Below, piece by piece: positions 5,161 to 54,372 of a DNA stretch of 64,000 bases. Below the pieces are notes generated by a model that saw only the letters and a program-made list of their open reading frames with translations, ran no database searches and was not told the DNA's origin. The position numbers and the translations under genes were made by a program. This DNA is from Clostridia bacterium (GTDB lineage: Bacteria > Bacillota > Clostridia > Oscillospirales > CAG-382), in NCBI GenBank assembly GCA_017381715.1, contig JAFOBR010000013.1, positions 12,170 to 76,169 on the forward strand, given 5' to 3'. The first letter of the stretch is position 1. Each line of letters begins with the position of its first letter.

Positions 5161-5196
5161 AGACAAAAAGAGTTGCTTTTGAAAGCAACTCTTTTT
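5161..5196 (-). terminator. Rho-independent terminator of the 12-kb operon
   Basis: AAAAAGAGTTGCTTT (5165-5179) pairs with AAAGCAACTCTTTTT (5182-5196), a perfect 15-nt inverted repeat. On the minus strand UUUUUGUCU follows the stem. Confidence 0.75.
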
Positions 5197-5211
5197 ATGT
5201 GATTAATTTTA

Positions 5212-6324
5212 TTAACCTGTAATACCGGAACGCTCAACGCCTTCGATAAGGGTACGCTGACCGAAGAGATACATAATAAGCAAAGGAATGAGTATGAGAA
5301 TACCGCAACCATTTCTGATAGCAGTTTCATATGCCATCTGACCGGCATACTCGGTATCCAAAGACTTAGGTATCGAAACGATATTATTAAGCAATATGTT
5401 ACCGCCGGAAGCGGGCATAAACAGATCGGTGTAGAACGTATCTGTCCACTGCCATGAGAAGGAGAACATAAAGATGGTAACCATCATGGCGGTTGACATC
5501 GGCAGGATTATACGGACAAAGGTCTTTATAACGCCTGCACCGTCAACGTATGCAGCTTCTTCCAATTCGTCGGGAACGCCTCTGTAGTACTGACGCATCA
5601 TGAAGATGTACAGACCGTTCTTAAATGCAAGACCGGTAAGAGAAAGGATCGCCATGGGCCAGTATGTATTAAGCGCGTTGGGGATAAGTCCGATGAAATC
5701 TGTGAATTTTTCGTATGTTTCGGGAGAAATAGTTCCGCCATCAAACATATTGAAAATCCATCCGTTTAACTGCGGTATGATACCGATAAGATCCAGATAA
5801 CGGAAACGCAGTATCATTGCCTGACGGATAGTTTCGTGAGGAACTACCATGGTAAAGATTACCAGCAGGAACAGGATACCCTTGAACTTGAACTTGAACT
5901 TCGCAAAGCCGTAGCCTACGATAGCGCAAACCAAGGTCTGGGATACACCGCAAAGCAAAGAAAGTGTTGTGGTGTTAAACAAAGCGGTAAAGTACTTGTT
6001 ATCGTTAATAATCGCCTTGTAAGTATCCAACGTCCAGTTACGAGGAATCATAAGAACGGTGGTATCAACAAAGTCTTCCCTCGCCATAAGAGAGGTGGTG
6101 ATCTTTGAGAAATACGGATAGATAATTACATAGGAAATACCGATAAGAAGAACCAATCTGAAGATAACCCAACCGAGCTTCTTAACGAAAAACATGTTAA
6201 AGTATTTAGCCTTAATACGCTCCCATAAAGAAGTTTCGGTATCTATCTTTGCGTTACCGGTTACGATTTTTTCAGGCTTTTTCTTTTTTGTAAAAAGACC
6301 TTTTAATTTTTCTGTAAAACTCAT
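5212..6324 (-). CDS. ABC transporter permease (MalG-like, CUT1-type) with N-terminal and loop insertions
   Basis: The protein is 370 aa and polytopic, with EAA loop ...DELEEAAYVDGAGVIKTFVRIILPMS.... Confidence 0.9.
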   Translation of the reverse strand: MSFTEKLKGLFTKKKKPEKIVTGNAKIDTETSLWERIKAKYFNMFFVKKLGWVIFRLVLLIGISYVIIYPYFSKITTSLMAREDFVDTTVLMIPRNWTLDTYKAIINDNKYFTALFNTTTLSLLCGVSQTLVCAIVGYGFAKFKFKFKGILFLLVIFTMVVPHETIRQAMILRFRYLDLIGIIPQLNGWIFNMFDGGTISPETYEKFTDFIGLIPNALNTYWPMAILSLTGLAFKNGLYIFMMRQYYRGVPDELEEAAYVDGAGVIKTFVRIILPMSTAMMVTIFMFSFSWQWTDTFYTDLFMPASGGNILLNNIVSIPKSLDTEYAGQMAYETAIRNGCGILILIPLLIMYLFGQRTLIEGVERSGITG

Positions 6325-6335
6325 AACGCACCTCC

Positions 6336-7340
6336 TTACTTTTCACGACGCTGATAGAATACGAACAGCGACGCAAATGCGGTACAGATTGCAAGAATAA
6401 GTATAACTATAAGGAAGTACAGCCAAGCCATTGCAGTACCGAGAGGCTTACCATTAGCTTCGTTACTTGCAGTAGTGATAAAGGACATCATTACGTTGGA
6501 CTTGGTAGTAAAGGAGTCGATTATAGTATAAACAAGGTTAACGAGAATCATGGGGCTGATCATGGGGAAAGTGATCTTCCAGAAGGTTTCCCAACCGGTA
6601 GCACCCTCAACCTTACAGGATTCGTATATCGAAGGAGATATAGACTGAAGAGCTGCAAGGAATATAAGCATCTGAACACCGGAACGGTTTACGATGTTGT
6701 ATACGTTGTTTGCCCATCCGCTAACGATGCCGGCGAGTTCAGAACCGATTTTCATGGATCCGAAGAAACGCTCAACGTCGATAGCATTAATAATCTCGGT
6801 ACCGGTATTCACAGCGCCCTCAACACCGTCTCCGTTAAGGTTGGAAACCTGGTCGCCAAGCTGAGCAAGAGTGTTCTGAAGGTCGATAGATTCAATAATA
6901 CCGGTGGATACTATAACGGGAACGAAGAAGATTGCACGGAATGCCGCTCTTCCCTTCATATCCTGGTTAAGCAAAATTGCCATAAACAGAGAGAATATGA
7001 TAATTGCGGGAATATCGAATGCCATTCCGCCAAGACACTCAACGAGTGTCTTGGTGAAATCTGCTTCTTTTAAAAGTGCATTTGAATAGTTAGTGAAAAG
7101 AGGTTTACACCATGTAAGCACCTGTCCGATATCCTCATACGCGATGGTACTGAAGGAAATCTGGATAGAAGAAACTATCATGGGGAGATAAATGAGGAAG
7201 AAACCAAGAAGGAACGGAAGTATAAACAGCCAACCGAAGGTCGATTTCTGTTTTTCAAGAGACTTTGCTTTTCTCTTTTTAACCTTCAAAGGCTTTACTT
7301 CAACGGTAGCTTGCTCGTTTGTTTTAAGCGCCTTATCCAT
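6336..7340 (-). CDS. ABC transporter permease (MalF-like, CUT1-type)
   Basis: The protein is 334 aa and polytopic, with EAA loop ...YESCKVEGATGWETFWKITFPMISP.... Confidence 0.9.
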   Translation of the reverse strand: MDKALKTNEQATVEVKPLKVKKRKAKSLEKQKSTFGWLFILPFLLGFFLIYLPMIVSSIQISFSTIAYEDIGQVLTWCKPLFTNYSNALLKEADFTKTLVECLGGMAFDIPAIIIFSLFMAILLNQDMKGRAAFRAIFFVPVIVSTGIIESIDLQNTLAQLGDQVSNLNGDGVEGAVNTGTEIINAIDVERFFGSMKIGSELAGIVSGWANNVYNIVNRSGVQMLIFLAALQSISPSIYESCKVEGATGWETFWKITFPMISPMILVNLVYTIIDSFTTKSNVMMSFITTASNEANGKPLGTAMAWLYFLIVILILAICTAFASLFVFYQRREK

Positions 7341-7354
7341 TATATTCCCTCCTG

Positions 7355-10246
7355 TTAAATTTGATTTCCGTCAGCGTCGAGCTTGATAAAGTCCTCAGCG
7401 CCGATAGTGTAGGAATTGCCGTCAACTTCAACGGTGGCTGCATTAAGGTCGTAGTTGATTATGAAGGAAATTCCGTTGCTGTAAGTTACCTTAACAACGT
7501 CATATTCGTCATCAAGGAACTGGTGATCAACGATATTCTCAGTCTTAACGTCTGCCAAAGCTTCGTTAAGTTCATTATAGGTTGTAACCATATCGTTAAG
7601 CCAGATGTTGTAACGAACGGAGTAGTAACCGGATACTTCGTACCAAGCGTTAAGTTTCTTAAGCTCGGAAGTGTTTTCCATAGCGAGTACGAAATAGGGG
7701 TTTGCGCCGTTTTCGATAGTTTTAAGTACGGTATAGCGGTAGTCACCTGCAAGGTTGATAGCTTCGCCGGTGTATTCGATATAGCCGTGAAGAACCATTC
7801 CGAGGAAAGGAACGCTGGTTGCGGAGTACTTGTAACCGGAGTCATCAAGAGCGATATTAACGATATCGGTAACATAGGGGAACGCATAAGCATTACCGCC
7901 GCTGATCATTACCTTGCCGTTATCTTCCTTTATCTGAGCAAAAAGCTTGGTGATAAGGGTCTTGTTGTCTTCGCGGTTGTAAGGTTCATCTTCATCAAAG
8001 TCGGAGGAAAGGGATTCGCCCAGTACGCCGACAGAAATGCTGCCTACATTGTAATCCTTGTAGTCATCCCAAGAGTTGGAATAGAACTTGTTCATTACAC
8101 TTGCAGAGATAATACCCATACCGGATCTGTCATATCCCTGGTAAAGTGCGCTGTAATACTGATGTCTTGCATAACGATCGTTAATAGTCTTTGCAAGATC
8201 GTCAGACTGAGAGAAGCCATCGAACCATCTGTCGTTATGAGCATAAACAAAGTCAAAATCGGGATACAGAGTAGCGCCGCTGGACTTTGCATACTCGATA
8301 AGCTTCTTAAAGCCTTCTTCGCCGCCGATAACTTTTTCAACCTTAACGCCATTGGGAACGGTATCACCGATACCGCCGTCCTGCCAGCCCATAAGTCTGA
8401 GCTTAACGTTGGAAATATCTGCGTCTTCGCCGAGAAGTTCAAGCATTTCGATTATCTTCTCAAAGCTTGCAAGAGAGTACATCTTATTAATGGGAACACC
8501 CATGAAGGAAGAAGATGCCTCAAGTGCGCAAAGGGTTTCGACATAGAGAGGAATATCTTTATGGGTTGTATCTTTGTCAATAGCAGTAAGAACGCCCTTA
8601 TTCTTGAGATACTGACGATAAATGTTTGCCATACCGGCAACGGAGGATTCTTCATCATTAAGAAGGAACACTCTGATCTTGTAATCCTTGGTGTACTTAC
8701 GGTCACATTCAACGGTCCAGGAAGAAGAGGAGCCGGCGGAAAGACCTGCATCAAGAGAAATGGTATCGGAAGGACGGGGGTTGATCGTACCGTAGCAAGA
8801 TACGAACATGTGAGTAGCACCGCCGTTTTCGATAGTAAGGTTAACCAGAGATTCACCTTCTTCAACGATTGCGAAGTAACCATTCTTGAGATACTTGGTA
8901 GTTTCTACCACTACCTCATTACCGTCTTCATCATATTCGGTGGTCTTAATCTTCTCTGTATAAGAGTTGTTCTTGGTCTCGATTATACCGAAAACAGGAA
9001 GTCTTACAGCCTGCTTGTTGGAGCCGCTGATTTCGCTGTAGGCATAGTCCTGACCGTAGATCTTGCTGGTATTCTTGAACTGACTGCCCATAATATCAGC
9101 AAAATTGATTATTGTACCGGAACCATCAGCAGAGAAAACGTAACCTTCGTTAGAAACAACGTTACCTGTACCTGCATAAGGCAGAATGCTGATGTTCTTC
9201 AAAGAATAAACGGAAGAGTCGAAACGAACGTTACCCATGTTACAACGGATAGAGAGTCCGTCTGCATCCAGCTTGTATTCCAGAGCGAGTTTGAACTGTG
9301 CGGGAGCTGCGTCCTTGTTTACATATTCAACTTCGTCGTGGTCGATCTGGAGCTGTTCAAGAGAGTAATCGGTATACATCTTCAACCAGCCTTCAAGAGT
9401 CTTAAGCTCCTGAACGGAGATTGCAGGTTCACAAACAGCTATAGGGAACTGTTCGCAGATAGGATACTTTTTCTTGTATTCTTCTTTACTCTTATCGGAA
9501 ATGTGAGGATCGTTTACGTCCTTAATAGTATAGAAGGACTCAAAACGGTTAGCGGGTCTGGTTTCTGTGCAGTTGGTTCTGATCTGCTCAAGCAAAGCCT
9601 GGAATTTTTCAAGCTTAATAACACGAGGAACCATATATGTGTTTTCTGCACGACCAAGCTTATATTCAACACGGATACCGTTTGCGATCTTCTTAACGGT
9701 AATCTGATTGTTTTTCGCAGAATCCTTATAAGAAGTCATTTCGTTTTCGGTGTTGCTGGAGCTCTTATCAACGTACTTTATAATAATCTGAGAATAAAGC
9801 AACTGCTTGATAGAGTCGGTAGAAGCTTGCTTGGAGGGGTTGGTACTTGCACCCGCATTATAGGGGTTGGAGCACCAGTAAGACTGATAGTAATAAATAC
9901 CGTCTGCACCGTATTCGAATTTGCCGTCTACGGGGTCTTTACAGCGGAGAACGATAACTTCACCGGTAAGCTTATCTACATACATTGCGTAAGGAATAGC
10001 TACGGTAGGTTCAAGATAAAGTTCAAGTGCATCAAGAGAGGTGTTACCAAGAATTCTTGATTTTACGCTGGAAAAGCTTACAGACATATATGCGGGACCT
10101 TTAGTATCCCAGATATCAACGTCTTTGCTTTCTTCCTCATCCCCTTCCGCAGCAAATGCGAAAAGACCGGATACGGAAGAAATTACAGGCAGGCAGAGCA
10201 GCAAGCAGAGTGCAAATGCCAGTATTGATTTGAAGAATTTACTCAT
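7355..10246 (-). CDS. Large secreted protein of unknown function, possibly DUF5696-like with a glycoside-hydrolase-like barrel region
   Basis: The protein is 963 aa with signal peptide MSKFFKSILAFALCLLLCLPVISSVSGLFAFA. The C-terminal third (...LRLMGWQDGGIGDTVP...ATLYPDFDFVY...SISVGVLGESL...) alternates beta-strand and helix like a TIM-barrel hydrolase. The family assignment is from memory and is not verified. Confidence 0.75.
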   Translation of the reverse strand: MSKFFKSILAFALCLLLCLPVISSVSGLFAFAAEGDEEESKDVDIWDTKGPAYMSVSFSSVKSRILGNTSLDALELYLEPTVAIPYAMYVDKLTGEVIVLRCKDPVDGKFEYGADGIYYYQSYWCSNPYNAGASTNPSKQASTDSIKQLLYSQIIIKYVDKSSSNTENEMTSYKDSAKNNQITVKKIANGIRVEYKLGRAENTYMVPRVIKLEKFQALLEQIRTNCTETRPANRFESFYTIKDVNDPHISDKSKEEYKKKYPICEQFPIAVCEPAISVQELKTLEGWLKMYTDYSLEQLQIDHDEVEYVNKDAAPAQFKLALEYKLDADGLSIRCNMGNVRFDSSVYSLKNISILPYAGTGNVVSNEGYVFSADGSGTIINFADIMGSQFKNTSKIYGQDYAYSEISGSNKQAVRLPVFGIIETKNNSYTEKIKTTEYDEDGNEVVVETTKYLKNGYFAIVEEGESLVNLTIENGGATHMFVSCYGTINPRPSDTISLDAGLSAGSSSSWTVECDRKYTKDYKIRVFLLNDEESSVAGMANIYRQYLKNKGVLTAIDKDTTHKDIPLYVETLCALEASSSFMGVPINKMYSLASFEKIIEMLELLGEDADISNVKLRLMGWQDGGIGDTVPNGVKVEKVIGGEEGFKKLIEYAKSSGATLYPDFDFVYAHNDRWFDGFSQSDDLAKTINDRYARHQYYSALYQGYDRSGMGIISASVMNKFYSNSWDDYKDYNVGSISVGVLGESLSSDFDEDEPYNREDNKTLITKLFAQIKEDNGKVMISGGNAYAFPYVTDIVNIALDDSGYKYSATSVPFLGMVLHGYIEYTGEAINLAGDYRYTVLKTIENGANPYFVLAMENTSELKKLNAWYEVSGYYSVRYNIWLNDMVTTYNELNEALADVKTENIVDHQFLDDEYDVVKVTYSNGISFIINYDLNAATVEVDGNSYTIGAEDFIKLDADGNQI

Positions 10247-10261
10247 ATTGCTACTCCTTTC

Positions 10262-12421
10262 TTATGACCATCTGTATGACAGCTCTGCGTAGATATTGTA
10301 GAAGAAGGTAAATACTCTTCCAAGCAAGCTGGTGAACAGAACGGCTACGAACATTACAAACATCATAAAGATGATTGTTGCAACAGTGATAATAATATTT
10401 TTAAACAGACCGTAATCGTGGATTACCATCATACCGAAGAACCAGAGCAGTGCTGTCCAGCCCCAAGCAATAGTCTCGATCATAGTAAGGATACCCTGTT
10501 CGCTCAAAGTAACGAAGTTGGATACCATAACTGTGGGAAGAACGAGCATTACAACGGGAAGCAAAGAATAGCAGGTTGCAATGTAAACGTCGGCAAGGCT
10601 GCCTTCACCGTCAAACAAAGTGGTAAGACACCAGTTGGAAACGGTAAGCAAAACTACGGGAAGCACGATGGAGCTTATCTGAATAACGTAGTTAACGCCG
10701 GTTCCTTCATATTTATTATAAAGGAAGCCTCTACCTACAGACTGGTAAACGAATGTGAACACAGTAAGAAGCAGAATAATGGTAGCGCCTCGTACAGAAC
10801 CGCGTTTTTCGTGCTTGAGGTCCCAGAAGCCGTCAAAGGGATGTACTATAACGTGGAAGCCATAGCAAACCTCTTCGTACCACTTGCGCTTTTCGGAATA
10901 CTTAAGACCGGCAGCATTAACCTTGTTAACCCACTTAGCAAACATCAAAACAGCAACAAGAACTACTACGATAATAAGAGCAAGTATCCAAAGGTTGGAT
11001 TCCATCCAATCCTTACGGTAGTGCTGATATGCTTCGGAATAGCTTTCCTGATCGTATGCGTACTTGTAGTACTGCATTGCGGTAATGTAGTCGCCTTCAC
11101 GATACTTTGCGTCACCGATTGCGATATACGCCTGGTCAAAGTTGTTGTTTCTCTGAAGAATACCCATGTAGTAGTCAACAGAAGCGGCATAGTCACCGTC
11201 TTCAATAGACTGTACAGCGGATATAAGCAAATCACCATACTCGGTGCGCTTGTAAATAGTGATGGAGTTGGTACTCTCATCAAGGAGAAGCATATAGGAA
11301 CCCTGGTAATCCATTGCGGTAAGACGCTGGATATTACCAAACTGATCACCCATATCACCGAAAGCAAACAGTAAGTTACCGTTGCTGTCATAAGTAAATA
11401 CGCGGCTACGCTTCTGGTCGATGATGGACCAGGTATTTGCTTCACCGAGAGCAACGTCTACGATAGTAGAGTTACCGGTTACGGTGTAATCTGTGCTGTT
11501 AGTAGAGGTAACGGTAACTTCACCGGACGGCGGATGGAAACCGTTTCTGTTAAGAACGTCACTTCCCTTGGGGTTGAGCTTCTTAATAGGAACCTGGGTA
11601 GTATCTGCACTCTGAGTTGCATATACAAATCCGTCTGCGTCGATAGTGATGTTATTGTACTCGATAGAAACAACAGATGCACTTGCGTCTATCTGAGCCT
11701 GAGTCTGGAAGTTTCTCCAGAACATATCCCAAGCATTTGCCTGCTGGGTAATAGCACCTACGAATCCGTTGAAGGAACCATCACGGTTAAGAGAAATAAT
11801 ACCGTAGTTGGTAGCCTTACCTACAACGTAAATACGTCCTGCAGAGTCAACTGCAACTGCGGAAGGCTTGTAAACGGAGTTTTCGGGCATAACTTCGGAA
11901 ACGGGTTCGTGAACGATATCTCTGAAGTTACCAAGCTTATCGAAAATAACGATACGGGATTTTTCGGTATCTGCAACGTAGATTTCTGTATCGGTTGCAA
12001 ATACGCCTTCGGGTGAAGCCAAAGTATCGGGAACACCCTGGTCATTTACGAATTCCTTAATGATAAGGTGGAGACGATACTGTTCATCAAGAATTACTAT
12101 ACGGCTGTTGCCGGTATCGGCAATGTATACGTAATTGAGATCGTCTACAAAAACATCCTTAGGTGTTGCAAGAGCACCGAAATCCTCGGCAGAATATTTA
12201 GCAGAGGCAGGATTGGATTCATTAAGAGATGCGAGCAAAGAAGCGGTAGTAATCTGCTTATAGGGAACGTAAACATCGGGGCTTTCCTGCATGAAAGCGT
12301 CTATATCATAAGTATAAGTGGTATAGGGAACGCTTGCGTTTGCAGTAATCGGAAGAGTGAATGCGCCTATAAGAAGGAAGCAGACACAAAAGAGGAGAGA
12401 TTTTGTAAGTATTCTTTTCAT
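10262..12421 (-). CDS. Signal peptide + NHL-repeat beta-propeller + TPR-like segment + C-terminal Yip1-type polytopic membrane domain
   Basis: The protein is 719 aa. NHL-like repeats include VYIADTGNSRIVILD, IYVADTEKSRIVIFD and GRIYVVGKATNYGIISLNRDG. A TPR-like segment reads ...GDAKYREGDYITAMQYYKYAYD.... A TM helix follows, then a ~230-aa domain with five TM helices resembling Yip1/DUF1282. Confidence 0.85.
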   Translation of the reverse strand: MKRILTKSLLFCVCFLLIGAFTLPITANASVPYTTYTYDIDAFMQESPDVYVPYKQITTASLLASLNESNPASAKYSAEDFGALATPKDVFVDDLNYVYIADTGNSRIVILDEQYRLHLIIKEFVNDQGVPDTLASPEGVFATDTEIYVADTEKSRIVIFDKLGNFRDIVHEPVSEVMPENSVYKPSAVAVDSAGRIYVVGKATNYGIISLNRDGSFNGFVGAITQQANAWDMFWRNFQTQAQIDASASVVSIEYNNITIDADGFVYATQSADTTQVPIKKLNPKGSDVLNRNGFHPPSGEVTVTSTNSTDYTVTGNSTIVDVALGEANTWSIIDQKRSRVFTYDSNGNLLFAFGDMGDQFGNIQRLTAMDYQGSYMLLLDESTNSITIYKRTEYGDLLISAVQSIEDGDYAASVDYYMGILQRNNNFDQAYIAIGDAKYREGDYITAMQYYKYAYDQESYSEAYQHYRKDWMESNLWILALIIVVVLVAVLMFAKWVNKVNAAGLKYSEKRKWYEEVCYGFHVIVHPFDGFWDLKHEKRGSVRGATIILLLTVFTFVYQSVGRGFLYNKYEGTGVNYVIQISSIVLPVVLLTVSNWCLTTLFDGEGSLADVYIATCYSLLPVVMLVLPTVMVSNFVTLSEQGILTMIETIAWGWTALLWFFGMMVIHDYGLFKNIIITVATIIFMMFVMFVAVLFTSLLGRVFTFFYNIYAELSYRWS

Positions 12422-12438
12422 ATAATATATCTCCTCTC

Positions 12439-13356
12439 TTAGTCTTTCATGCCCGAAGTGGACATTGTCTGAATAACGTTACTCTGTGTAATATAGAATA
12501 CTGCACAAGGTACGATCATCATTACCACGGTAGAAGCGGCAGATACACCGGTACGTGCAACACCACTGGTTACCAACTGGCTGATCGCGTAGTTAAAGGT
12601 TTTAAGTTCTTCGCTGTAAATATAGGTGCTGGCGCCGGAGTTCCACAGATCCTTGAAAGCAAAGATAATAAGTGTGATCCAAGCGGGCTTAACCATAGGC
12701 ATTGCGATCTTCCAGAAAATTCTGAACTCCCCTGCACCGTCGATACGAGCGGATTCGAGAACAGCGTCTGTAACGGAGGATTCCATAAACTGCTTCATAA
12801 GGTACAGACCGAAGGTTGTACAGCAAGCAGGAATTATAACTGCCCAATATTTGTCTATCATCTTAAGATAGCTCATAAGAAGGAAGTTAGTAATACCGGT
12901 AACGGTAGAGTTAAACATCAAAGAGTAAACTATGGTCTGGAACAGCATGTTTCTTCCGGGGAACGGAATCTTTGCGATCGCGTATGCAGCGAAAGAAGAC
13001 AGAATTACGTTACCAAACGTACCGGATACGGAAATAAGAACCGTATTAAAGATGTATCTGGAGAAAGGTACCCAAGAATCTCCCATCAATCTGAACAGGT
13101 CAACGAAGTTATCGATAACCCATCTGTTGGGGAAGAAGTGAGGGGGGAACAGCCAAAGCTCATCAAGAGGCTTAAATGACTGACCGAGAGCGTATATTAC
13201 GGGCAAAGACATTGCCAACGCACATATAATAAGGAAAAACAATACGCCAAAGTCACCGCCGGCAGAACGGTTTATAGAACGTTTAAACTGCTCTTTGGGC
13301 TGCTTGCCTTTTGCAACGCGGCGCATTTCTATTTTCTCGGAAAGTTTTTTGAACAT
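12439..13356 (-). CDS. ABC transporter permease (MalG-like, CUT1-type)
   Basis: The protein is 305 aa, with EAA loop ...VLESARIDGAGEFRIFWKIAMPMVKP.... Confidence 0.9.
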   Translation of the reverse strand: MFKKLSEKIEMRRVAKGKQPKEQFKRSINRSAGGDFGVLFFLIICALAMSLPVIYALGQSFKPLDELWLFPPHFFPNRWVIDNFVDLFRLMGDSWVPFSRYIFNTVLISVSGTFGNVILSSFAAYAIAKIPFPGRNMLFQTIVYSLMFNSTVTGITNFLLMSYLKMIDKYWAVIIPACCTTFGLYLMKQFMESSVTDAVLESARIDGAGEFRIFWKIAMPMVKPAWITLIIFAFKDLWNSGASTYIYSEELKTFNYAISQLVTSGVARTGVSAASTVVMMIVPCAVFYITQSNVIQTMSTSGMKD

Positions 13357-13358
13357 AA

Positions 13359-14297
13359 TTATGAACCTACCTTTCTGAGAATTCGAGGGATCAACAGGTT
13401 ACAACCGATCATCATAAAGAACAGTATGGTTGCAATTGCGGAAGCGTAACCCATTTCGTAACGGGCTCCGCCGTAGTCATCAAGATGGTGCATTATGGTA
13501 TGTACGCAGTAGTCGGGAGACGGGAAGCCAACGAGAGCTGTAATAACGCCGCCGAAACCGAAAGCACCGGTGATGGAGAGAATTGCGGAAAGCATCATCT
13601 GAGGACGCATGGAAGGAAGGGTGATATACCAAAGTTCCTGCCAACGGTTCTTGATACCGTCGATAGCGCCTGCTTCGTAAAGGTCTTTATTAACAACCTG
13701 GAAACCTGCGATAAAGGTAAGGAAGCTGGTACCCAAAGAGGTCCACAATGCTACTACGATGATGAGGGGGAAGATGGTATCGGTATCCTGGAACCAAAGT
13801 TTAGGCTCGTTTATAATACCGAATTCGATAAGGTAAGCGTTCACGAAACCGTATTGGTCGCTGGAGAAGAACACTGCCCAGATAAGATATACCGCACCGG
13901 AAATAGAAGGAGCGTAGAATATCAAGGTAAGGAAAGCACGAAGCTTGGGGCGGAGTTCGTTAATGAACCAAGCGAAGAAAAGTGAAAGCAAATAGGAAGC
14001 GGGGCCGGTAATTACAGCGAATATAAGGGTATTTTTGATAGCTGTAATAAACACTTCGTCATCAAACAGAAGTCGGATATAGTTATCAAAGAATACGAAT
14101 TCGGGGAACTCCAGCATATTGAACACTGTAAAGCTCAATACTACGGACAAAACAACAGGAACGACATAGAACATGATAAAGAGTATAAAGAAGGGTGCAA
14201 CCATAAGATAAGCTACCTTATGTTTCTTTATCTCGTTCAAAGTCCAACTGAATCTGGAAATGTCTTTCCTGACGACAGCTTGTTCTTTTTTAGCCAT
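13359..14297 (-). CDS. ABC transporter permease (MalF-like, CUT1-type)
   Basis: The protein is 312 aa, with EAA loop ...LYEAGAIDGIKNRWQELWYITLPSMRP.... Confidence 0.9.
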   Translation of the reverse strand: MAKKEQAVVRKDISRFSWTLNEIKKHKVAYLMVAPFFILFIMFYVVPVVLSVVLSFTVFNMLEFPEFVFFDNYIRLLFDDEVFITAIKNTLIFAVITGPASYLLSLFFAWFINELRPKLRAFLTLIFYAPSISGAVYLIWAVFFSSDQYGFVNAYLIEFGIINEPKLWFQDTDTIFPLIIVVALWTSLGTSFLTFIAGFQVVNKDLYEAGAIDGIKNRWQELWYITLPSMRPQMMLSAILSITGAFGFGGVITALVGFPSPDYCVHTIMHHLDDYGGARYEMGYASAIATILFFMMIGCNLLIPRILRKVGS

Positions 14298-14317: not shown

Positions 14318-17300
14318 TTATTTATCATCTGCTACGGAACCAAGTTCTTTAAAGGTTTCCGTGGTAGGAAGATCGAACTCCTGACGCTTACGTGTAAGCT
14401 CTGCGTTGATATCGTCGAGGTAAGAACGCATTTTTTCTACAGGGTTGTCATCGTTGTTATAAGCGCCCAAGAATGCGAAGTTGGTGAAACGGCCGATAAT
14501 GTAAGAACCGGGATATTCGGGAGTACACTCAACTGCGTTAAACTGTGCTACCAGGTTATCAAGCTCGTCCTTAGACCAGCTCATCTTCTGAAGCGCTTCA
14601 ATATTTGCGGTGGAGTATTTAGCAGAAGGACCGAGCAGAGCAATCTTTTCGTTACCGAAGGTAGACTGAACATCTGCGCTGGACCACCACTGCATAAATG
14701 TCCAAGCGGAAAGTGCATTTTTCTCGTTTGCACCTCTCATCATAATAAGAGAGGAAACAGCTGCGATAGTGCTGTTATTGATAGTTTCGGTCTCGGGATC
14801 GAAAGTACCGGGCAGAGGAGTGAATTCCCACAAACCGGAAATTTCGGGAGCAAAGATTACCATAGTATTATATGTAGAGGTGTAATCTGCTATTGCCAAA
14901 GGCATAATACCCTGACGGAAACGGGTAGCAATACTGTAAGAATAGGGGAAGTCGTAATCGGTGAACAGTTCGCAAACCTTCTTGAAGGTTTCAAGCATTG
15001 TGTTGCTTCCCAGGTTGATCTCCATACCGTCGATCTTGGGACGAACTTTACCGCTTGCATCGGTGTATACCCAGCCCATTTCAACCAGTTCGTCCATGGT
15101 ATACTGAGTAAGAAGTTGATTAAGATATGCATCATATTCTTCATCGGTATAAGTTACGAACAGGTCGTCATTCTGCTGATATGCCCAAATGAAGGAGCCG
15201 CCGGTACCCTGAGGGAAGCCGATATCAAGAGAATTGGACTGCATGGTGTAAATGAGGTCATAGAAATCTTCCCAAGTGTTGGGAACTTCCAAGCCGAGTT
15301 CTACAAACAAGTCTTTTCTGTAGAACATCATAGAGAAGGACATGGTATCTGCAATACCGTAAGCTTCACCATAGAGAGTGAAAGGAACCATTGCAGCAGG
15401 AGCGAAACGCTTTGTTACTTCGTCAAACGTTGCGATATCATCAATAAATTCACCATATACGGGGTGATCAGCCCACTTGGAAAGATCATTGAAGTTATAA
15501 CCGTGAGCTTCGCTGTTGAGAGAGTAAACAGCAGAACGGATAGCAAAGTTAACAGGGTCACTCTGACCTGCGCCCATATATACGTCGGGACCGGTACCTG
15601 CAAGAGTTGCGGGAAGCAAAGTGCCACCTACAACCAGCTTAACGGTTACGGGGATGCTGTAACGTTCGTTGAAGGAATCGTCTACCAGGTTACGGATAAT
15701 AGTAGCTTCTTCACGGGAGTTAGCGGTCCATACTTCGATAGCACATTCCTGAAGAGCTTCATCGGAGTAATCCTTTTCTACGAGAGAACCGATAGAGTTA
15801 TAATCTGCAGAGAAGGAACCGAAGAACTTAAGGATTTCTGCCCACATGGAAGCAAAGAATCCTGCTTCTGCCTTGGGAGCCTTTGCGTCGACAGCCTGGA
15901 ATGCTACATAGTCAAGAAGCAGAGGCTGAGAAGTGTTATCGGAAAGCCAAGTACCGAGGGTTGCGGTATATTCCTTAAGAGTGTTCATATAGCCGGCGAT
16001 TTCGGAGGGGTGTTTACCCATACGCTCAACTATAACTGCAACCTTCTTAAGAGTACCGGTCTGGTCGCCGGCACTACCGGAAATAAGGATAATCTCTTCA
16101 GCGATCTGATTAAGATTTTCTGCCTCTTCCTTAAAGCCCTTGAGTACATCGGGAATAAGCTTCTGGAACTTATAGTCACGAGTATCATCAGGTTCTGCAC
16201 CGGTGATCATGAGTATTTTTCTGTAGTATTCGTTAAGGTTGGAAAGAGAATCGGAAACGCGGCCGAGAATATCGGACATATCACCGAGAACAACCTGGAA
16301 ACGAATGGTATGTATACCCTCTTCAAGATAGAACTTGAAATTGGTTACGCCGTTGTTAAGAACATCGGTACGCCAAGAAGTGGAGTAGTTAAATCTGAGG
16401 TTCTGTGCTTCTTCAAAGGGAAGCTCGCCATCGATAAGAATCTTTCTGGAAACGAATGAGCCCATAAACTCTTCCTGCTTGGAACGAGGAATTATGGAAT
16501 AGAATCCGGATTCTTTAACATCGATAGTGTACTCTATCCACTGGCCTACGTACTGCCACTTATTAGAACCGATACTGTTGTAACGGATAAGAGTGGAATC
16601 CTGAGGTTCGGAAACAGAGGACTTACGATCGTTTATCTGATACAGAGTACGGTCGGAAGTAAGAACGGGATACTCAGCCTGAATCTTGAGAGTTTCGCCG
16701 GTGTAGTCCTTTGCGCCAGCTGCGGTATGCTTAGCGATGTATTCATCGTAAGTCAAAGTATCGGAAGCAGCTTTAAGAACTATCTTCTTGATAGCCATAG
16801 GCTCGGTAATAGTCTCAATATTAAGGGTGTGAGCACCTTCGGTGAGATAATATTTGAGAGGGTTGGGATAGTATCCGCTGGTGTCGTAAGCAAAGGATCC
16901 GGTCCACATACCGTAGATCTCTTTGGTGGGCTTTGCTTCGTTGCCATTGGTATCATACGGGAAGAGACGATCGCTGTCGGGAGACATATTCGCCTGATCG
17001 CGCACGAAATCAAGGAAGAAATCGCTTACGGAATCGAAGTAGGATTTAGACTTATCATCTTCGATCTTGGTGTAAACATCCTTCCACGCACGGGTGAATG
17101 TAAGAGAACGGGATTCCTTGAAGGAAACCGATTCGTCAAAGTAAATAATACGTTCGATATCTGCAGATTTACCGACAGCGGCAACCGCACCGGAAGCATC
17201 GAGTACTTCGATATCGCCGGTCCAGTATTCGATATAAACAGAATACATAGCCGTTTCGGGAACGTCGATATCAAACACGATCTTACCGTCATCGCCCATC

Positions 17301-17620
17301 AAAAGGACGGTGCCTTCAGCGCCCTCGTAACCGTCTTTGAGGTTAACGGTGGCAGTGCTGTCTTCCTTGTAAGCAGAAAGATCGATCACAATCTCTTTGT
17401 CCGCATTCTTTACGTCCTTGTAGATTTCAAGATAACTCGAATAGGATACCGAAGTAAGAAGTTTTTCGATCTCACTAAGCGAGGTGCGAACCAAAGAATC
17501 CGAACCGTCGACAGATTCCACTTTTGCATAAGCGCCGAGAAGAGCATAATCGCCCAACAGCATCACGCAAACAAGCAGGACCGCCATCAGTTTGGAAAAG
17601 CAGTTCTTAAACCTGGTCAT
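14318..17620 (-). CDS. Giant (~1100 aa) extracellular solute-binding protein with two N-terminal beta-rich (carbohydrate-binding-like) modules
   Basis: ATG 17620 follows GGGAGGAA; the track start at 17770 adds 50 implausible residues. The signal peptide is MTRFKNCFSKLMAVLLVCVMLLGDYALLGAYA. Two related modules end in ...EGAHTLNIETITEPMAIKKIVL and ...EGIHTIRFQVVLG. The C-terminal ~450 aa look like a family-1 sugar SBP (...PDVYMGAGQSDPVNFAIR..., ...FRQGIMPLAIADY...). Confidence 0.85.
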   Translation of the reverse strand: MTRFKNCFSKLMAVLLVCVMLLGDYALLGAYAKVESVDGSDSLVRTSLSEIEKLLTSVSYSSYLEIYKDVKNADKEIVIDLSAYKEDSTATVNLKDGYEGAEGTVLLMGDDGKIVFDIDVPETAMYSVYIEYWTGDIEVLDASGAVAAVGKSADIERIIYFDESVSFKESRSLTFTRAWKDVYTKIEDDKSKSYFDSVSDFFLDFVRDQANMSPDSDRLFPYDTNGNEAKPTKEIYGMWTGSFAYDTSGYYPNPLKYYLTEGAHTLNIETITEPMAIKKIVLKAASDTLTYDEYIAKHTAAGAKDYTGETLKIQAEYPVLTSDRTLYQINDRKSSVSEPQDSTLIRYNSIGSNKWQYVGQWIEYTIDVKESGFYSIIPRSKQEEFMGSFVSRKILIDGELPFEEAQNLRFNYSTSWRTDVLNNGVTNFKFYLEEGIHTIRFQVVLGDMSDILGRVSDSLSNLNEYYRKILMITGAEPDDTRDYKFQKLIPDVLKGFKEEAENLNQIAEEIILISGSAGDQTGTLKKVAVIVERMGKHPSEIAGYMNTLKEYTATLGTWLSDNTSQPLLLDYVAFQAVDAKAPKAEAGFFASMWAEILKFFGSFSADYNSIGSLVEKDYSDEALQECAIEVWTANSREEATIIRNLVDDSFNERYSIPVTVKLVVGGTLLPATLAGTGPDVYMGAGQSDPVNFAIRSAVYSLNSEAHGYNFNDLSKWADHPVYGEFIDDIATFDEVTKRFAPAAMVPFTLYGEAYGIADTMSFSMMFYRKDLFVELGLEVPNTWEDFYDLIYTMQSNSLDIGFPQGTGGSFIWAYQQNDDLFVTYTDEEYDAYLNQLLTQYTMDELVEMGWVYTDASGKVRPKIDGMEINLGSNTMLETFKKVCELFTDYDFPYSYSIATRFRQGIMPLAIADYTSTYNTMVIFAPEISGLWEFTPLPGTFDPETETINNSTIAAVSSLIMMRGANEKNALSAWTFMQWWSSADVQSTFGNEKIALLGPSAKYSTANIEALQKMSWSKDELDNLVAQFNAVECTPEYPGSYIIGRFTNFAFLGAYNNDDNPVEKMRSYLDDINAELTRKRQEFDLPTTETFKELGSVADDK

Positions 17621-17690: not shown

Positions 17691-17719
17691 ATAATACCAC
17701 TACTCCCCCATTTTGTCAA
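17691..17719 (-). promoter_or_regulatory. Sigma-A-type promoter of the 12-kb operon
   Basis: On the minus strand, TTGACA (17719-17714), a 17-nt spacer, then TATTAT (17696-17691). It lies about 70 nt upstream of ATG 17620. Confidence 0.5.
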
Positions 17720-18227: not shown

Positions 18228-19190
18228 TTAACCGGTAACGGTAATTATAAACCCATCGTAATTATTACCGGAGATGAGGTAGGCGGAATCATTGGGCACG
18301 TTAATACCGGATGTAAGTCCGTCTTCCATAGGCTGGTAATACACTTCGTAGGATTTATTCTGAACGTCGATAATCAACGGCTCTTCGGGAGTGTATTGCT
18401 TGAGCAATTCCAGATACTCTTCGAGACACAAATTGTTTTTGTACATAAAGTACGCATGGCAAACGCCCACATAACGATATATACCTTTGTGTGCAGCGTG
18501 TCCTGAAACAGCATCCTTCCCTTCGGGATATCTGAGGATGAATCCGTAGGAATAGCAATTATCAAGAAACCAAGCGAAGGTTCCTTCCCCCATGCTTCCA
18601 ACCTTGGAAGGCCATGCCATAAGTCTGACAGAATTACCAATATGGTAATCACTTGCGCCTGCAGCATCTGTGCCTTCTTTTTCCAATGCTTTTTCGTAAG
18701 AAAGATAAGCATCGTGAACAAGAACACCGGAGTTGAGACCGGATTCGGCATAGAAAGCTTCACACATCGCCTTGAGAGATTTAGCGGCAGTTGTGTTAAG
18801 GTACAATCCCGATCCGCTGAAGGAAACGTTACTGTCTTTCAGCGAAGCATAAAGATTAACCATATCTGTTTCTGCGGGAAAAGCATAGCGGTTATCCGAA
18901 TTTACCAAAATAAGCAATCCGTTATTAACCTCTGAATTATCGACGGATGCGAGAGTGAATCTTGAAGTCTCACTCTCGTCACCGAGGAATCCGGAGTTTT
19001 CGTTATCCGGTTGCGAAGGAGCCGCAGAAGACGAATTACTATCTACAGGTCCAGAAGGATTCGGCTTTTTGAACAATCCGGAACCGAACACCATAAGTGC
19101 AACAACCAAAGCGACAACTACGCAGGCGACAATGGACAACAAATATACATACATGTATCCGTCGCCGGATGAGTACTTATCTCTTGACAT
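18228..19190 (-). CDS. Membrane-anchored VanY/M15B-like D,D-carboxypeptidase homolog with apparently degenerate metal-binding motifs
   Basis: The protein is 320 aa with an N-terminal TM anchor. ...GFILRYPEGKDAVSG....YRYVG is the M15B C-terminal signature, but the expected SxHxxGxAxD reads SDYHIGNSVR and the expected EPWH reads HKGI. The RBS GGAGG is present, and the gene starts 28 nt after the nifJ stop. Confidence 0.75.
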   Translation of the reverse strand: MSRDKYSSGDGYMYVYLLSIVACVVVALVVALMVFGSGLFKKPNPSGPVDSNSSSAAPSQPDNENSGFLGDESETSRFTLASVDNSEVNNGLLILVNSDNRYAFPAETDMVNLYASLKDSNVSFSGSGLYLNTTAAKSLKAMCEAFYAESGLNSGVLVHDAYLSYEKALEKEGTDAAGASDYHIGNSVRLMAWPSKVGSMGEGTFAWFLDNCYSYGFILRYPEGKDAVSGHAAHKGIYRYVGVCHAYFMYKNNLCLEEYLELLKQYTPEEPLIIDVQNKSYEVYYQPMEDGLTSGINVPNDSAYLISGNNYDGFIITVTG

Positions 19191-19218
19191 AACAAACCTC
19201 CGTTAATTTAGGATTAAA

Positions 19219-22200
19219 CTATTTCTGTTCTGCGAGTTCCTTGTAAGTTTCGTACTTGATAGCAGCCTGTTCCTTTGCCTTTTCGAAGAGTTCTTTAGCT
19301 CTTTCGGGGAACGCCTGAACAAGACGGCTGTATCTGGTCTCGCTGCTGATAAAGTCAATATAATCTGCGGTGGGAGCCTTGGAATCCAATGTGAAGGGAT
19401 TCTTTCCGTCTGCCTTAAGGAGAGGATTGTAACGGAACATCTGCCAGTAGCCTGCGTCAACCGCACGCTTCATTTCGTTCTGGCAGTTAGCCATACCGCC
19501 CTTAACACCATGCATTTCGCAAGGAGCGTAGCCGATGATAAGAGAAGGTCCGGGATAAGCTTCTGCTTCAAGGATAGCCTTGAGAGTCTGATTCTTATCT
19601 GCGCCCATAGCGATCTGTGCAACGTAAACGTAACCGTAAGACATTGCGATAGCTGCAAGGTTCTTCTTGCCGATAGCCTTACCGGCTGCTGCAAACTGAG
19701 CTACCTGACCGATCTGAGAAGCCTTGGAAGCCTGTCCGCCGGTGTTGGAGTATACTTCGGTATCGAATACCATAATGTTTACGTCTTCGCCGGAAGCGAT
19801 AACGTGGTCAAGACCGCCGAAGCCGATATCGTATGCCCAGCCGTCACCACCAAAGATCCATACGGATTTCTTTGCAAGGTAATCCTTGTCTGCGAGAATC
19901 TTCTTGGATGCTTCGCAGCCTGCTGCGGACCATTTTTCAAGAAGCTCTACGAGAGCTGCGGTAGCAGCTTCATTTGCCTTACCGTCGTTAACGGTATTGA
20001 GATAATTATCGATCACTGCCTGATCAGCTTCGTTTTCAGCCTTAAGCTCCTTAACGTAACCGATAAGACGCTCACGAATGGTCTTCTGACCGAGGTAGAT
20101 ACCCAAGCCGTGTTCAGCGTTGTCTTCGAACAAGCTGTTAGCCCAAGCGGGACCGCGGCCGCTGTCTCTGTTTACGGTGTAAGGCGTAGCAGGTGCGGAG
20201 CCGCCCCAGATAGAAGAACATCCGGTAGCGTTGGATATATACATTCTTTCACCGAAGAGCTGGGTAATAAGACGTGCGTAAGAGGTTTCTGCACAGCCTG
20301 CGCAGGATCCGGAGAACTCGAGGAGAGGCTGCTCGAACTGGCTGCCCTTAAGAGTGTTTGCTGCAAAAGGAAGTTCCTTCTTGCTTACCTTATCTACACA
20401 GTAGTTCCAAGCTTCTGCCTGCTCGGACTGGGATTCCTGACTCTTCATAACGAGCGCCTTTTCCTTTGCGGGACAAGCGGAAACGCAGAGAGTACAGCCC
20501 ATACAGTCAAGAGGACTTACAGCCATGGTAAATACGTAGTTTTCACATCCCTTGCCTACCATCTTCTTGGTCTTTACGGAAGCGGGTGCATTTGCAGCCT
20601 CTTCTTCGTTAAGAGCGTAAGGACGGATGGTTGCATGAGGACAAACGAAAGCACACTGGTTACACTGGATACAGTTTTCGGGGATCCATTCGGGTACGTC
20701 TACTGCAACGCCGCGCTTTTCATAAGCTGCAGAACCCTGAGGGAATGTACCGTCTACGTAATCAACGAATGCGCTTACGGGGAGAGAATCGCCGTTCATC
20801 TTACCTACGGGAAGAACAACGCTTTCTACAAACTTAACAACATCGGGTCTGCCGGAAACTGCAGAAGCGGAAGCGGCGGATGCGGAAACTGTCTTCCAGG
20901 ATTCGGGAACTTCGATCTTGACAAGAGCTTCAACACCTGCGTCAATAGCCTTGTAGTTCATTTCAACTACAGCTTCGCCCTTCTTCATATAGGACTTCTT
21001 AGCCATATACTTCATATACTCTACTGCGTTTTCAATAGGCATAATGTTTGCGAGTGCGAAGAAAGCAGCCTGGAGAATGGTATTGGTTCTCTTGCCCATA
21101 CCGATCTCACGAGCCTTATCTATTGCGTTAACGGTGTAGAACTTGATATCGTTATCAGCGATATAACGCTTAACCTCTGCGGGAAGATGCTCTTCCAGCT
21201 CTTCTGCGGACCACTGGCAGTTAAGAAGGAAGGTTCCGCCGGGCTTAACGTCGTTTACGATCTTATAACCCTTGGTAATATAGCTGGGGTTATGGCAGGC
21301 GACGAAGTTTGCCTTTGTAATATAATAAGGAGATTTAATAGGCTTATCACCGAAGCGGAGGTGAGAAATGGTAACACCGCCGGTCTTCTTGGAGTCATAC
21401 TGGAAGTATGCCTGAATGAACTTTTCGGTATGGTCGCCTATAATCTTGATAGAGTTCTTGTTTGCGCCAACGGTACCGTCGCCGCCCAGGCCCCAGAATT
21501 TGCAGGAAATAGTTCCTTCGGGAGCTGTATCGGGGCAAGTCTCTTCGGGAAGAGAGAGACCGGTAACGTCATCTACGATACCGAGAGTAAAGCTGTTCTT
21601 GGGCTCTTCAGCATCAAGATTCTTAAAGGTTGCAAAGATAACGGAAGGAGGAGTATCCTTGCTTCCGAGACCGTATCTACCGCCAACGATAGTGCCGGTA
21701 AAGCCGTTCTGACGGAGAGCTGCCACAACGTCAAGGTAAAGGGGTTCGCCGAGAGAACCGGGTTCCTTGGTGCGGTCAAGCACTGCTATCTTCTTTGCGG
21801 TTGCAGGAATAGCGGAAATAAGATGCTTTGCGGAGAAAGGTCTGTAAAGTCTTACTTTGATAAGACCAACTTTTTCACCCTTTGCGGTAAGGTAATCGAT
21901 AACTTCTTCAGCTACGTCGCATACGGAGCCCATAGCAACGATAACCTTTTCTGCATCGGGAGCGCCGTAATAGTTAAAGAGCTTGTAATCGGTACCGATC
22001 TTTTCGTTTACCTTATTCATATATTCTTCCACTACTGCGGGGAAAGCTTCGTAATAAGAGTTACAAGCTTCTCTGTGCTGGAAGAAGATATCACCGTTTT
22101 CTGCGGAACCGCGGAGAACGGGATGTGCGGGATTGAGAGATCTTGCACGGAAAGCCGCAACAGCGTCTTTATCAAGCATTTCTTCAAGATCCTTGTAATC

Positions 22201-22758
22201 CCATTCTTCAATCTTCTGAATCTCGTGAGAGGTTCTGAAGCCGTCGAAATAGTTAAGAACGGGAACTCTGCCCTTTATAGCGGAAAGATGTGCAACAGCG
22301 GCAAGATCCATAACTTCCTGAGGGTTGGATTCAGCCATCATTGCGAAGCCTGTCTGACGGCAGGCATATACGTCGGAATGGTCACCGAAAATGTTGAGTG
22401 CGTGGGTAGCTACGCAACGTGCGGAGCAGTGGATAACGCAAGGCAACAATTCACCGGCGATCTTATACATATTGGGGATCATGAGAAGCAGACCCTGGGA
22501 AGCAGTGAAAGTGGTAGTAAGAGCACCTGCTGCAAGAGAACCGTGAACGGTACCTGCGGCACCTGCTTCGGACTGCATTTCAACAACCTTAACCTCATCA
22601 CCGAAGACATTCTTCTGACCTGATGCGGACCAAGCGTCTGTGAGTTCAGCCATTACGCTGGAAGGGGTAATGGGATAAATAGCGGCAACTTCGGTAAACG
22701 CATACGCTACGTGAGCGGCAGCTGTATTACCGTCCATTGACCTTTTGTTTCTGGACAT
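19219..22758 (-). CDS. nifJ: Pyruvate:ferredoxin (flavodoxin) oxidoreductase
   Basis: The protein is 1179 aa, with N-terminus ...MDGNTAAAHVAYAFTEVAAIYPITPSS.... It has two ferredoxin-type CxxCxxCxxxCP motifs (CIQCNQCAFVCP, CMGCTLCVSACP) and a TPP-binding GGDGWAYDIG motif. Confidence 0.97.
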   Translation of the reverse strand: MSRNKRSMDGNTAAAHVAYAFTEVAAIYPITPSSVMAELTDAWSASGQKNVFGDEVKVVEMQSEAGAAGTVHGSLAAGALTTTFTASQGLLLMIPNMYKIAGELLPCVIHCSARCVATHALNIFGDHSDVYACRQTGFAMMAESNPQEVMDLAAVAHLSAIKGRVPVLNYFDGFRTSHEIQKIEEWDYKDLEEMLDKDAVAAFRARSLNPAHPVLRGSAENGDIFFQHREACNSYYEAFPAVVEEYMNKVNEKIGTDYKLFNYYGAPDAEKVIVAMGSVCDVAEEVIDYLTAKGEKVGLIKVRLYRPFSAKHLISAIPATAKKIAVLDRTKEPGSLGEPLYLDVVAALRQNGFTGTIVGGRYGLGSKDTPPSVIFATFKNLDAEEPKNSFTLGIVDDVTGLSLPEETCPDTAPEGTISCKFWGLGGDGTVGANKNSIKIIGDHTEKFIQAYFQYDSKKTGGVTISHLRFGDKPIKSPYYITKANFVACHNPSYITKGYKIVNDVKPGGTFLLNCQWSAEELEEHLPAEVKRYIADNDIKFYTVNAIDKAREIGMGKRTNTILQAAFFALANIMPIENAVEYMKYMAKKSYMKKGEAVVEMNYKAIDAGVEALVKIEVPESWKTVSASAASASAVSGRPDVVKFVESVVLPVGKMNGDSLPVSAFVDYVDGTFPQGSAAYEKRGVAVDVPEWIPENCIQCNQCAFVCPHATIRPYALNEEEAANAPASVKTKKMVGKGCENYVFTMAVSPLDCMGCTLCVSACPAKEKALVMKSQESQSEQAEAWNYCVDKVSKKELPFAANTLKGSQFEQPLLEFSGSCAGCAETSYARLITQLFGERMYISNATGCSSIWGGSAPATPYTVNRDSGRGPAWANSLFEDNAEHGLGIYLGQKTIRERLIGYVKELKAENEADQAVIDNYLNTVNDGKANEAATAALVELLEKWSAAGCEASKKILADKDYLAKKSVWIFGGDGWAYDIGFGGLDHVIASGEDVNIMVFDTEVYSNTGGQASKASQIGQVAQFAAAGKAIGKKNLAAIAMSYGYVYVAQIAMGADKNQTLKAILEAEAYPGPSLIIGYAPCEMHGVKGGMANCQNEMKRAVDAGYWQMFRYNPLLKADGKNPFTLDSKAPTADYIDFISSETRYSRLVQAFPERAKELFEKAKEQAAIKYETYKELAEQK

Positions 22759-51574: not shown

Positions 51575-51575
51575 T

Positions 51576-54311: not shown

Positions 54312-54372
54312 CTGTAATCCTCCTTTCATAACATTAACGCGGAAATCGCCGGTTTTATTGCAAACAAAAAAT

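Follow-up and report, generated by a model that had tools for sequence, protein, structure and literature searches.

An NHL propeller-Yip1 fusion protein in a predicted seven-gene carbohydrate import cassette of uncultured Clostridia: a possible accessory subunit

Results

Architecture and predicted topology of the fusion protein

A stretch of 64,000 nucleotides (nt) from a Clostridia bacterium (assembly GCA_017381715.1, contig JAFOBR010000013.1; hereafter, the window) was analysed with a focus on the gene at 10262..12421. This gene is an unbroken open reading frame (ORF) of 719 codons plus stop on the minus strand, on which all features of the surrounding seven-gene cassette also lie; the initial annotation gave no strand. 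It encodes a protein, here called NHL-Yip1, that joins an NHL beta-propeller, TPR motifs and a transmembrane (TM) helix to a C-terminal Yip1 domain. A Shine-Dalgarno-like sequence, GAGAGGAG, is found ~10 nt 5' of the ATG. The N-terminus is basic (MKRILTK) and continues into a hydrophobic core and an ANA|SV cleavage motif, together forming a predicted signal peptide of residues 1-29 (12335..12421).

The mature protein would begin with an extracellular six-bladed NHL propeller (residues 30-392; 11246..12334), as indicated by Pfam, profile search, an AlphaFold2 (AF2) model and Foldseek. The NHL family PF01436 scored 41.8 bits (cut-off, 20), and there was a match to SBBP as well. In a search of solved structures, the NHL-Yip1 family profile retrieved the NHL propellers of Pizza and PknD with E values down to 4e-40, as well as TRIM NHL domains; Pizza and PknD match the same profile region, and no solved structures are closer to the family by sequence profile. 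The AF2 model of NHL-Yip1 reached a mean predicted local distance difference test score (pLDDT) of 73.5 and a predicted template modelling score (pTM) of 0.53, with two low-confidence insertions in the propeller, at ~224-251 and 293-313. Compared by Foldseek with the PDB, this model matched the NHL domains of TRIM71, Thin, Brat and PknD over ~313 columns, with a target-normalised template modelling score of ~0.75.

Two TPR motifs follow, modelled as four helices (residues 393-457; 11051..11245). Consensus TPR proteins match the family profile at positions ~423-476 (E 6e-25), and TPR_19 and TPR_16 are among the precomputed domain matches of NHL-Yip1 homologues. In the model, the TPR runs on into one long helix (458-504) that holds a TM segment at residues 477-495 (10937..10993; Kyte-Doolittle hydropathy 3.3). 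Beyond this TM helix, the model shows two short helices and then five long ones up to the C-terminus. The corresponding sequence comprises a basic linker with nine K/R (residues 496-540; 10802..10936), which bears the motif HPFDGFWDLKHEKRG and is predicted from its charge pattern to be cytoplasmic, and a five-TM Yip1 bundle (residues 541-719; 10265..10801) identified by Pfam, model and hydropathy. The Yip1 family PF04893 matched with an E value of 2.7e-14 and 53.8 bits (cut-off, 28.6), covering positions 1-172 of the 173 positions of its hidden Markov model and residues 522-693 (10343-10858). DUF1282, which had been named next to Yip1 in the initial annotation of this gene, gave no match on NHL-Yip1 at E<=0.01.

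The ectodomain of NHL-Yip1 is acidic (61 D/E versus 31 K/R), and the loop of 45 residues after the TM helix is basic (9 K/R). This distribution points to an out-TM-in arrangement followed by five TM helices, and we infer solely from the positive-inside rule that the N-terminal side of the Yip1 part is cytoplasmic. No cytoplasmic output domain (kinase, HAMP, GGDEF or other) was found in NHL-Yip1, in which the cytoplasmic stretch ahead of the bundle measures 45 residues. Judged from its sequence, NHL-Yip1 is an exported and membrane-embedded protein with a predicted propeller/TPR head outside and 1+5 TM helices that end in Yip1. The initial annotation, made from the DNA letters, had listed a signal peptide, NHL blades, TPR-like helices, a TM helix and a C-terminal five-TM Yip1 domain; each of these was recovered here, with both the NHL and the Yip1 profile matching.

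A very large family with one architecture

A word-indexed database search yielded 2701 homologues of NHL-Yip1. Among the 120 homologues listed, nearly all were full length (~730 residues) and carried both Yip1 and NHL Pfam matches. Given the number of homologues and the full length of nearly all those listed, we take the 719-codon ORF to be a real gene, far beyond chance. Database names for the homologues are limited to "YIP1 family protein", "hypothetical", "YncE" or "YvrE", and a search of the literature found nothing on the family. When 1.84 billion cluster representatives (50% identity) were scanned exhaustively with HMMER, ~1400 clusters at 50% identity matched NHL-Yip1 below 1e-30; the best 150 cluster representatives were nearly all full length (~700 residues), and the fusion was kept down to 31% identity.

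A relative is encoded in at least 592 of 600 candidate stretches from GTDB species-representative genomes, and 80 loci were retrieved from these candidates and inspected. All 80 belong to Clostridia metagenome-assembled genomes (MAGs), the majority of which carry the labels Eubacteriales, Oscillospiraceae or Ruminococcus; most stem from the gut of chicken, goat, sheep, yak, rabbit, horse or human. NHL and Yip1 parts encoded as two separate genes were seen in none of the retrieved loci, and the fusion was present and linked to the cassette in every related locus examined. Short matches of 335-591 residues were considered as split versions of the fusion; more probably, the genes are cut off at the ends of short contigs. 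On the evidence of these homologues, the combination of domains, which the initial annotation had described as a fusion, is the fixed, standard architecture of a very large family (those ~1400 clusters) and not a rare event.

An alignment of 142 divergent representatives showed about equal conservation over all parts of NHL-Yip1. The propeller residues conserved in at least 95% of these representatives are a structural Asp, Gly or Pro that recurs once in each blade, and no catalytic-looking cluster (His/Glu/Lys/Tyr) or metal site was evident among the conserved propeller residues of the divergent relatives. In the Yip1 part, P528, G531, W597, L602, G605, G607, Y618, P622, E641, W655, L659, H668, E713 and R717 are conserved in at least 90%, and the two linker residues among them, P528 and G531, in at least 95%.

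A seven-gene cassette with two permease pairs

On the minus strand, the genes for a giant sugar-binding protein, permeases A1 and A2, NHL-Yip1, a DUF5696 protein and permeases B1 and B2 follow each other with gaps of 2-20 nt, those flanking NHL-Yip1 measuring 15-17 nt. The best sigma-70-like promoter of the region (17691..17719) reads TTGACA-17-TATTAT with an extended TG (11/12). A terminator hairpin was predicted past the upstream VanY-like gene (18213-18186), and an intrinsic-terminator-like hairpin of 16 pairs with a T-run (5163..5198) closes the unit past B2. Taken together, the predicted promoter and the bracketing hairpins indicate one transcription unit of seven genes. This places NHL-Yip1 between two pairs of BPD_transp_1 permeases with the binding protein upstream, as the initial annotation had described.

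The giant extracellular sugar-binding protein (~1100 residues; 14318..17620) was recognised by SBP_bac_1 and by a PDB profile match. The mechanical ORF is longer, with 1150 residues and a GTG start at 17770; a Met with a signal-like segment lies at 17620. Since the best promoter sits inside the 5' extension of the mechanical ORF, the gene probably starts at this Met. By sequence comparison, its C-terminal half is a genuine family-1 sugar-binding domain (SBP_bac_1, E 3.6e-11; best PDB relative Lin1841, E 1.9e-21). The N-terminal ~600 residues had no relatives among solved structures; within them, a helical stretch occurs besides two beta-rich modules whose mutual similarity is weak (E 0.001 and 0.017), and on our reading of the sequence these modules resemble carbohydrate-binding modules. 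The protein starts with a hydrophobic segment, and a lipobox is absent in ~60 of 64 orthologues. Non-lipoprotein binding proteins are unusual among Gram-positive bacteria.

All four permeases are BPD_transp_1 importer subunits: A1 (MalF/UgpA-type; 13359..14297), A2 (MalG/UgpE-type; 12439..13356), B1 (MalF-type; 6336..7340) and B2 (MalG-type; 5212..6324). Relative to pair A, pair B carries extracytoplasmic insertions in both of its members. The EAA coupling loop is kept in all four (in A2 read by eye as LESARIDGAGEFRIFWKIAMP), and the cassette thus contains two complete pairs and one canonical binding protein. Neither a MacB-like gene nor a membrane fusion protein was found in the cassette. An ABC (ATP-binding cassette) ATPase is likewise missing from it, and ABC_tran had no match among the ORFs scanned in the window, which were all but a few shorter ones. 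No regulator is encoded in the cassette or adjoining it.

In its core parts, the sequence identifies the cassette as an importer of the carbohydrate uptake transporter 1 (CUT1) type. With CUT1 importers of Firmicutes (MalEFG/UgpBAE-like; Lin1841, PDB 5ysb) it shares a family-1 binding protein, MalF/MalG permeases with EAA loops and the lack of an ATPase gene in the operon. In Firmicutes, sharing of an MsmK-type ATPase encoded elsewhere is established for CUT1 systems. Unlike these systems, the cassette combines two permease pairs with one binding protein, this protein is ~1100 residues long with a 600-residue N-terminal region and no lipobox, and two extracytoplasmic components, NHL-Yip1 and DUF5696, are added.

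We then compared the seven window proteins with the 80 loci by tblastn. Order and orientation of the cassette were constant wherever the contig reached, with 67 of 67 upstream flanks and 56 of 56 downstream flanks complete. This order holds down to 43% identity of NHL-Yip1, and in distant relatives the flanks are wholly different and the seven genes are still together. Directly upstream of the cassette in the window lie genes for a membrane-anchored VanY-like D,D-carboxypeptidase and PFOR (18228-22758, minus strand). Their synteny with the cassette is seen in closer relatives (~49-89% identity, within loci L001-L024) and not in more distant ones. Since the region, including PFOR and the VanY-like gene, is syntenic in closer relatives, part of the linkage reflects vertical inheritance. 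Elsewhere the window carries core chromosomal genes, including those for SpoVAD, PFOR, Mfd, PPDK, MetRS, GAPDH and MurC.

Three plus-strand ORFs lie antisense to genes of this region: 7361-10060 (899 residues), 19510-22623 (1037 residues) and 15116-16459 (447 residues), opposite DUF5696, PFOR and the binding-protein gene, respectively. We read them as mechanical, because the minus-strand genes have Pfam, homologue and synteny support.

The DUF5696 neighbour has a predicted glycosidase fold

The most informative neighbour of NHL-Yip1, overlooked in the initial annotation, is the DUF5696 protein (963 residues; 7355..10246), which matched PF18952 with an E value of 1.9e-143. No paper mentioning DUF5696 was found in the literature searched. 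An AF2 model built from a 30-sequence alignment (pLDDT 84.6; pTM 0.81) shows an N-terminal beta-sandwich, a (beta/alpha)8 barrel and a C-terminal beta-domain. The best Foldseek match was ZgGH129 (5opq), with an E value of 1.3e-29 over ~940 columns and a target template modelling score of 0.70, followed by Bifidobacterium NagBb (5wzq; 1e-21) and then by GH101, GH36 and GH31. The likeness to GH129/GH101 enzymes (ZgGH129, 5opq; NagBb, 5wzn) is one of fold, with a sequence identity of just ~10-12%, and DUF5696 differs from GH129 by an extra N-terminal ~250 residues. The DUF5696 family profile matched the NagBb sequence weakly (E 2.6e-4). In GH129/GH101-like enzymes, an Asp nucleophile and a Glu acid/base stand at barrel strands 4 and 6. 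Invariant acidic residues of DUF5696 are D749, E759, D760, D835 and E845. On the strength of the model, we are confident in predicting a GH129/GH101/GH36-like glycosidase fold for DUF5696, which is putatively extracytoplasmic. In 64 of 64 orthologues, the only hydrophobic segment is the N-terminal one, and a C-terminal TM helix, an LPXTG motif and a lipobox are all absent.

In ten loci, the gap between DUF5696 and permease B1 exceeds 0.9 kb, and extra genes were considered there. A plus-strand ORF of at least 120 residues was found in 0 of the 10; from the sequences, these gaps look like C-terminal extensions of DUF5696.

Covariation divides the cassette into two blocks

Rate covariation inside the cassette was estimated by comparing pairwise distance matrices with partial Mantel tests. 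The seven proteins were taken from 64 complete loci, of which 51 passed length filters, giving 52 genomes with the window. Two blocks appeared: block A, with the binding protein, A1 and A2 (mutual partial correlations of 0.52-0.63), and block B, with the NHL-TPR head, the Yip1 TM part, DUF5696, B1 and B2. Among all parts of the other proteins, DUF5696 was the top correlate of the NHL-Yip1 head (Pearson 0.85; Spearman 0.74; partial 0.39; permutation p 0.001). The head further correlated with B2 (0.35) and B1 (0.24); its values with the binding protein (0.11), A1 (0.02) and A2 (0.00) were not significant. The same preference was seen for the Yip1 TM part (DUF5696, 0.25; B1, 0.15). Rate class alone is insufficient to explain the pattern: the binding protein evolves fast and yet falls into one block with the slow A permeases. 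These data suggest that the cassette holds two functional or historical sub-modules.

Discussion

A possible accessory subunit of the importer

We tentatively propose that NHL-Yip1 is a non-catalytic accessory membrane subunit of a seven-gene cassette for carbohydrate capture and import, a reading to which we give somewhat less than an even chance. The initial annotation had offered a choice between accessory subunit or gate for the transporter and sensor. The first of these is the most likely role, and the argument for it is indirect: it rests on the invariant gene order, the single transcription unit and the covariation with DUF5696 and pair B. The predicted topology is in line with it, since the acidic ectodomain and the basic loop obey the positive-inside rule.

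A precedent comes from Bacillus. The initial annotation had stated that bacterial Yip1 proteins have no established function, and this overlooked YknW, which is reported to be the Yip1-family fourth component of YknWXYZ and to modulate assembly of the YknXYZ ABC transporter (PMC4887032, PMC4338810). YknW of B. subtilis and B. amyloliquefaciens resembles NHL-Yip1 in being a polytopic Yip1-domain protein in an ABC transporter operon; it is small and has no ectodomain, whereas NHL-Yip1 bears a 450-residue propeller-TPR head. The partners also differ, being a MacB-type exporter with a membrane fusion protein for YknW, and type I MalFG-like importer permeases with a binding protein for NHL-Yip1. 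By analogy, NHL-Yip1 may work like the YknW type without being a member of it, a MacB-type partner being absent. Moreover, Yip1 proteins recur beside ABC transporters in bacteriocin clusters (PMC11580447).

In eukaryotes, Yip1/YIPF proteins share with NHL-Yip1 the five-TM PF04893 domain and have a cytosolic N-terminal side, as predicted for NHL-Yip1, and the YIPF are Golgi proteins implicated in yeast vesicle budding (PMC6682643). Such a Golgi or vesicle role is inapplicable to NHL-Yip1, a protein of the Gram-positive cytoplasmic membrane. Eukaryotic Yip1/YIPF proteins also bind Rab/Ypt, and this property is inapplicable for the same protein.

In the mechanism that we envisage, the Yip1 bundle would dock laterally on the ABC permeases, with a preference for pair B, as YknW would on YknXYZ. 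The propeller and TPR, as protein- or ligand-binding modules, could bind DUF5696 and/or its glycan substrate. Since the TPR runs straight into the TM helix, the head would sit on the membrane surface, and it might keep DUF5696 and/or the glycan at the transporter's entrance. Products of the cleavage would then be set free right beside the transporter, and energy would presumably come from a shared MsmK-type ATPase encoded elsewhere in the genome.

Several points weigh against this proposal. Confidence in the NHL-Yip1 model is moderate (pLDDT 73.5, pTM 0.53), and the NagBb sequence alignment to DUF5696 covers the start of the barrel and ends before the catalytic region. The uncleaved N-terminal segment of DUF5696 may itself anchor that protein, and a tether would then be needless. 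The partial Mantel test is liberal and over-rejects on phylogenetically structured data, and the two-block pattern could reflect separate histories of half-cassettes. The analogy with YknW is loose, because YknW serves a MacB-type exporter and not a type I importer. Finally, every relative whose record was checked comes from a MAG or a metagenome.

Other readings of the locus

The presence of two complete EAA-bearing permease pairs and one canonical binding protein speaks for a different reading. The propeller-TPR head could be the substrate receptor of pair B, a membrane-tethered stand-in for a soluble or lipoprotein binding protein that would deliver ligand to B1/B2 and trigger ATP hydrolysis. 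NHL-Yip1 and DUF5696 indeed occupy the position ahead of pair B that is usual for a binding-protein gene, and NHL-Yip1 covaries with pair B, not with pair A. We nevertheless consider this reading rather unlikely: to our knowledge, no beta-propeller acts as the receptor of an ABC importer, no ligand-binding pocket was identified in the propeller, the giant binding protein could serve both pairs, and DUF5696 covaries with NHL-Yip1 more strongly than the permeases do.

A broader version holds that the cassette contains two importers, with B1/B2 partnered by the Yip1-tethered propeller and the GH129-like DUF5696 and lacking a classical binding protein. This is a long shot. If it were true, the cassette would define a new class of ABC importer receptor in which glycan cleavage is coupled directly to uptake, and would give bacterial Yip1 its first defined role, as a transporter-docking module for importers.

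A sensor or gate, in which ligand on the propeller would alter the Yip1 bundle and switch the transporter on or off within the membrane, takes up another suggestion of the initial annotation. The structural relatives include the extracellular sensor domain of PknD (Mycobacterium tuberculosis; PDB 1rwi), which, like the head of NHL-Yip1, is an external six-bladed NHL propeller joined to a membrane span. In PknD, however, one TM helix leads to a cytoplasmic Ser/Thr kinase, whereas NHL-Yip1 continues into the Yip1 bundle, with a sole cytoplasmic stretch of 45 residues before it. The motifs HPFDGFWDL, NWCLTTLFDGEG and HDY, on the predicted cytoplasmic side of Yip1, are conserved in an alignment of 54-89% identity, and P528, G531, W597, L602, G605, G607 and H668 within them are at least 90% conserved in divergent relatives. 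HPFDGFW, however, lies inside the Pfam Yip1 match and may therefore be a family-wide structural feature. With no regulator in or beside the cassette, and because an output domain is lacking, we downgraded this reading to improbable.

NHL-Yip1 might instead be a membrane-anchored ecto-enzyme, a lyase, lactonase or esterase of the NHL/SGL type that processes glycan beside DUF5696, with Yip1 as a mere anchor. Virginiamycin B lyase is among the fold matches, there is a weak match to the ScyF NHL model, and some relatives are named "sugar lactone lactonase YvrE"; against this, the source names are automatic, fold-level labels. The five-TM domain is conserved like the ectodomain, which is excessive for a mere anchor. 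Because the conserved propeller residues are the repeated structural Asp, Gly and Pro, with no catalytic cluster or metal site evident, this reading was downgraded as well, and we regard it as quite unlikely.

Lastly, NHL-Yip1 might serve something other than the transporter, such as the cell envelope, and simply be inherited along with it. The synteny of the whole region in closer relatives, PFOR and the VanY-like gene included, would agree with this, but such a role is very hard to credit for a gene that sits between permease pairs with gaps of 15-17 nt inside one promoter-terminator unit, in a seven-gene order that survives wholly different flanks down to 43% identity.

Significance of the cassette

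Bacterial Yip1 proteins are almost unstudied, and hundreds of gut and rumen Clostridia species carry one as a fixed part of this sugar importer cassette. As an accessory subunit of that importer, NHL-Yip1 would give bacterial Yip1 a concrete candidate role, that of docking on a transporter. Cassette context and fold likewise provide a function hypothesis for DUF5696, as a GH129-like glycosidase. The design of the system is puzzling: there are two permease pairs, the one binding protein is giant and not a lipoprotein, and the cassette encodes no ATPase. The cassette is probably one of the main carbohydrate routes of these uncultured Clostridia; it is widespread, conserved and wholly uncharacterised, and its host lineages come without experimental handles.

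Other observations in the window

Away from the cassette, an ORF of 876 residues (27597-30227, plus strand) opens with sigma-70 regions 2 and 4, both within the first 190 residues, and the remaining ~690 have no Pfam match. Either the ORF is mis-joined or it encodes a sigma-factor fusion of unusual length. A second sigma-70 r2/r4 gene (53733-54329, minus strand) shares 4 nt with an RsgI-like anti-sigma gene (52417-53736; PF23750). We take this arrangement, spanning 52417-54329, to resemble the SigI/RsgI pairs that act as sensors of extracellular polysaccharides in cellulolytic Clostridia. For two further large ORFs, of 943 residues (48788-51619, minus strand) and 801 residues (55117-57522, plus strand), Pfam gave no match at E<=1e-5. 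A stretch of 4.5 kb contains two paralogous M18 aminopeptidase genes (58645-60015 and 61772-63079, minus strand), and the pair adjoins a gene for a BspA-type leucine-rich-repeat protein (57660-58589).

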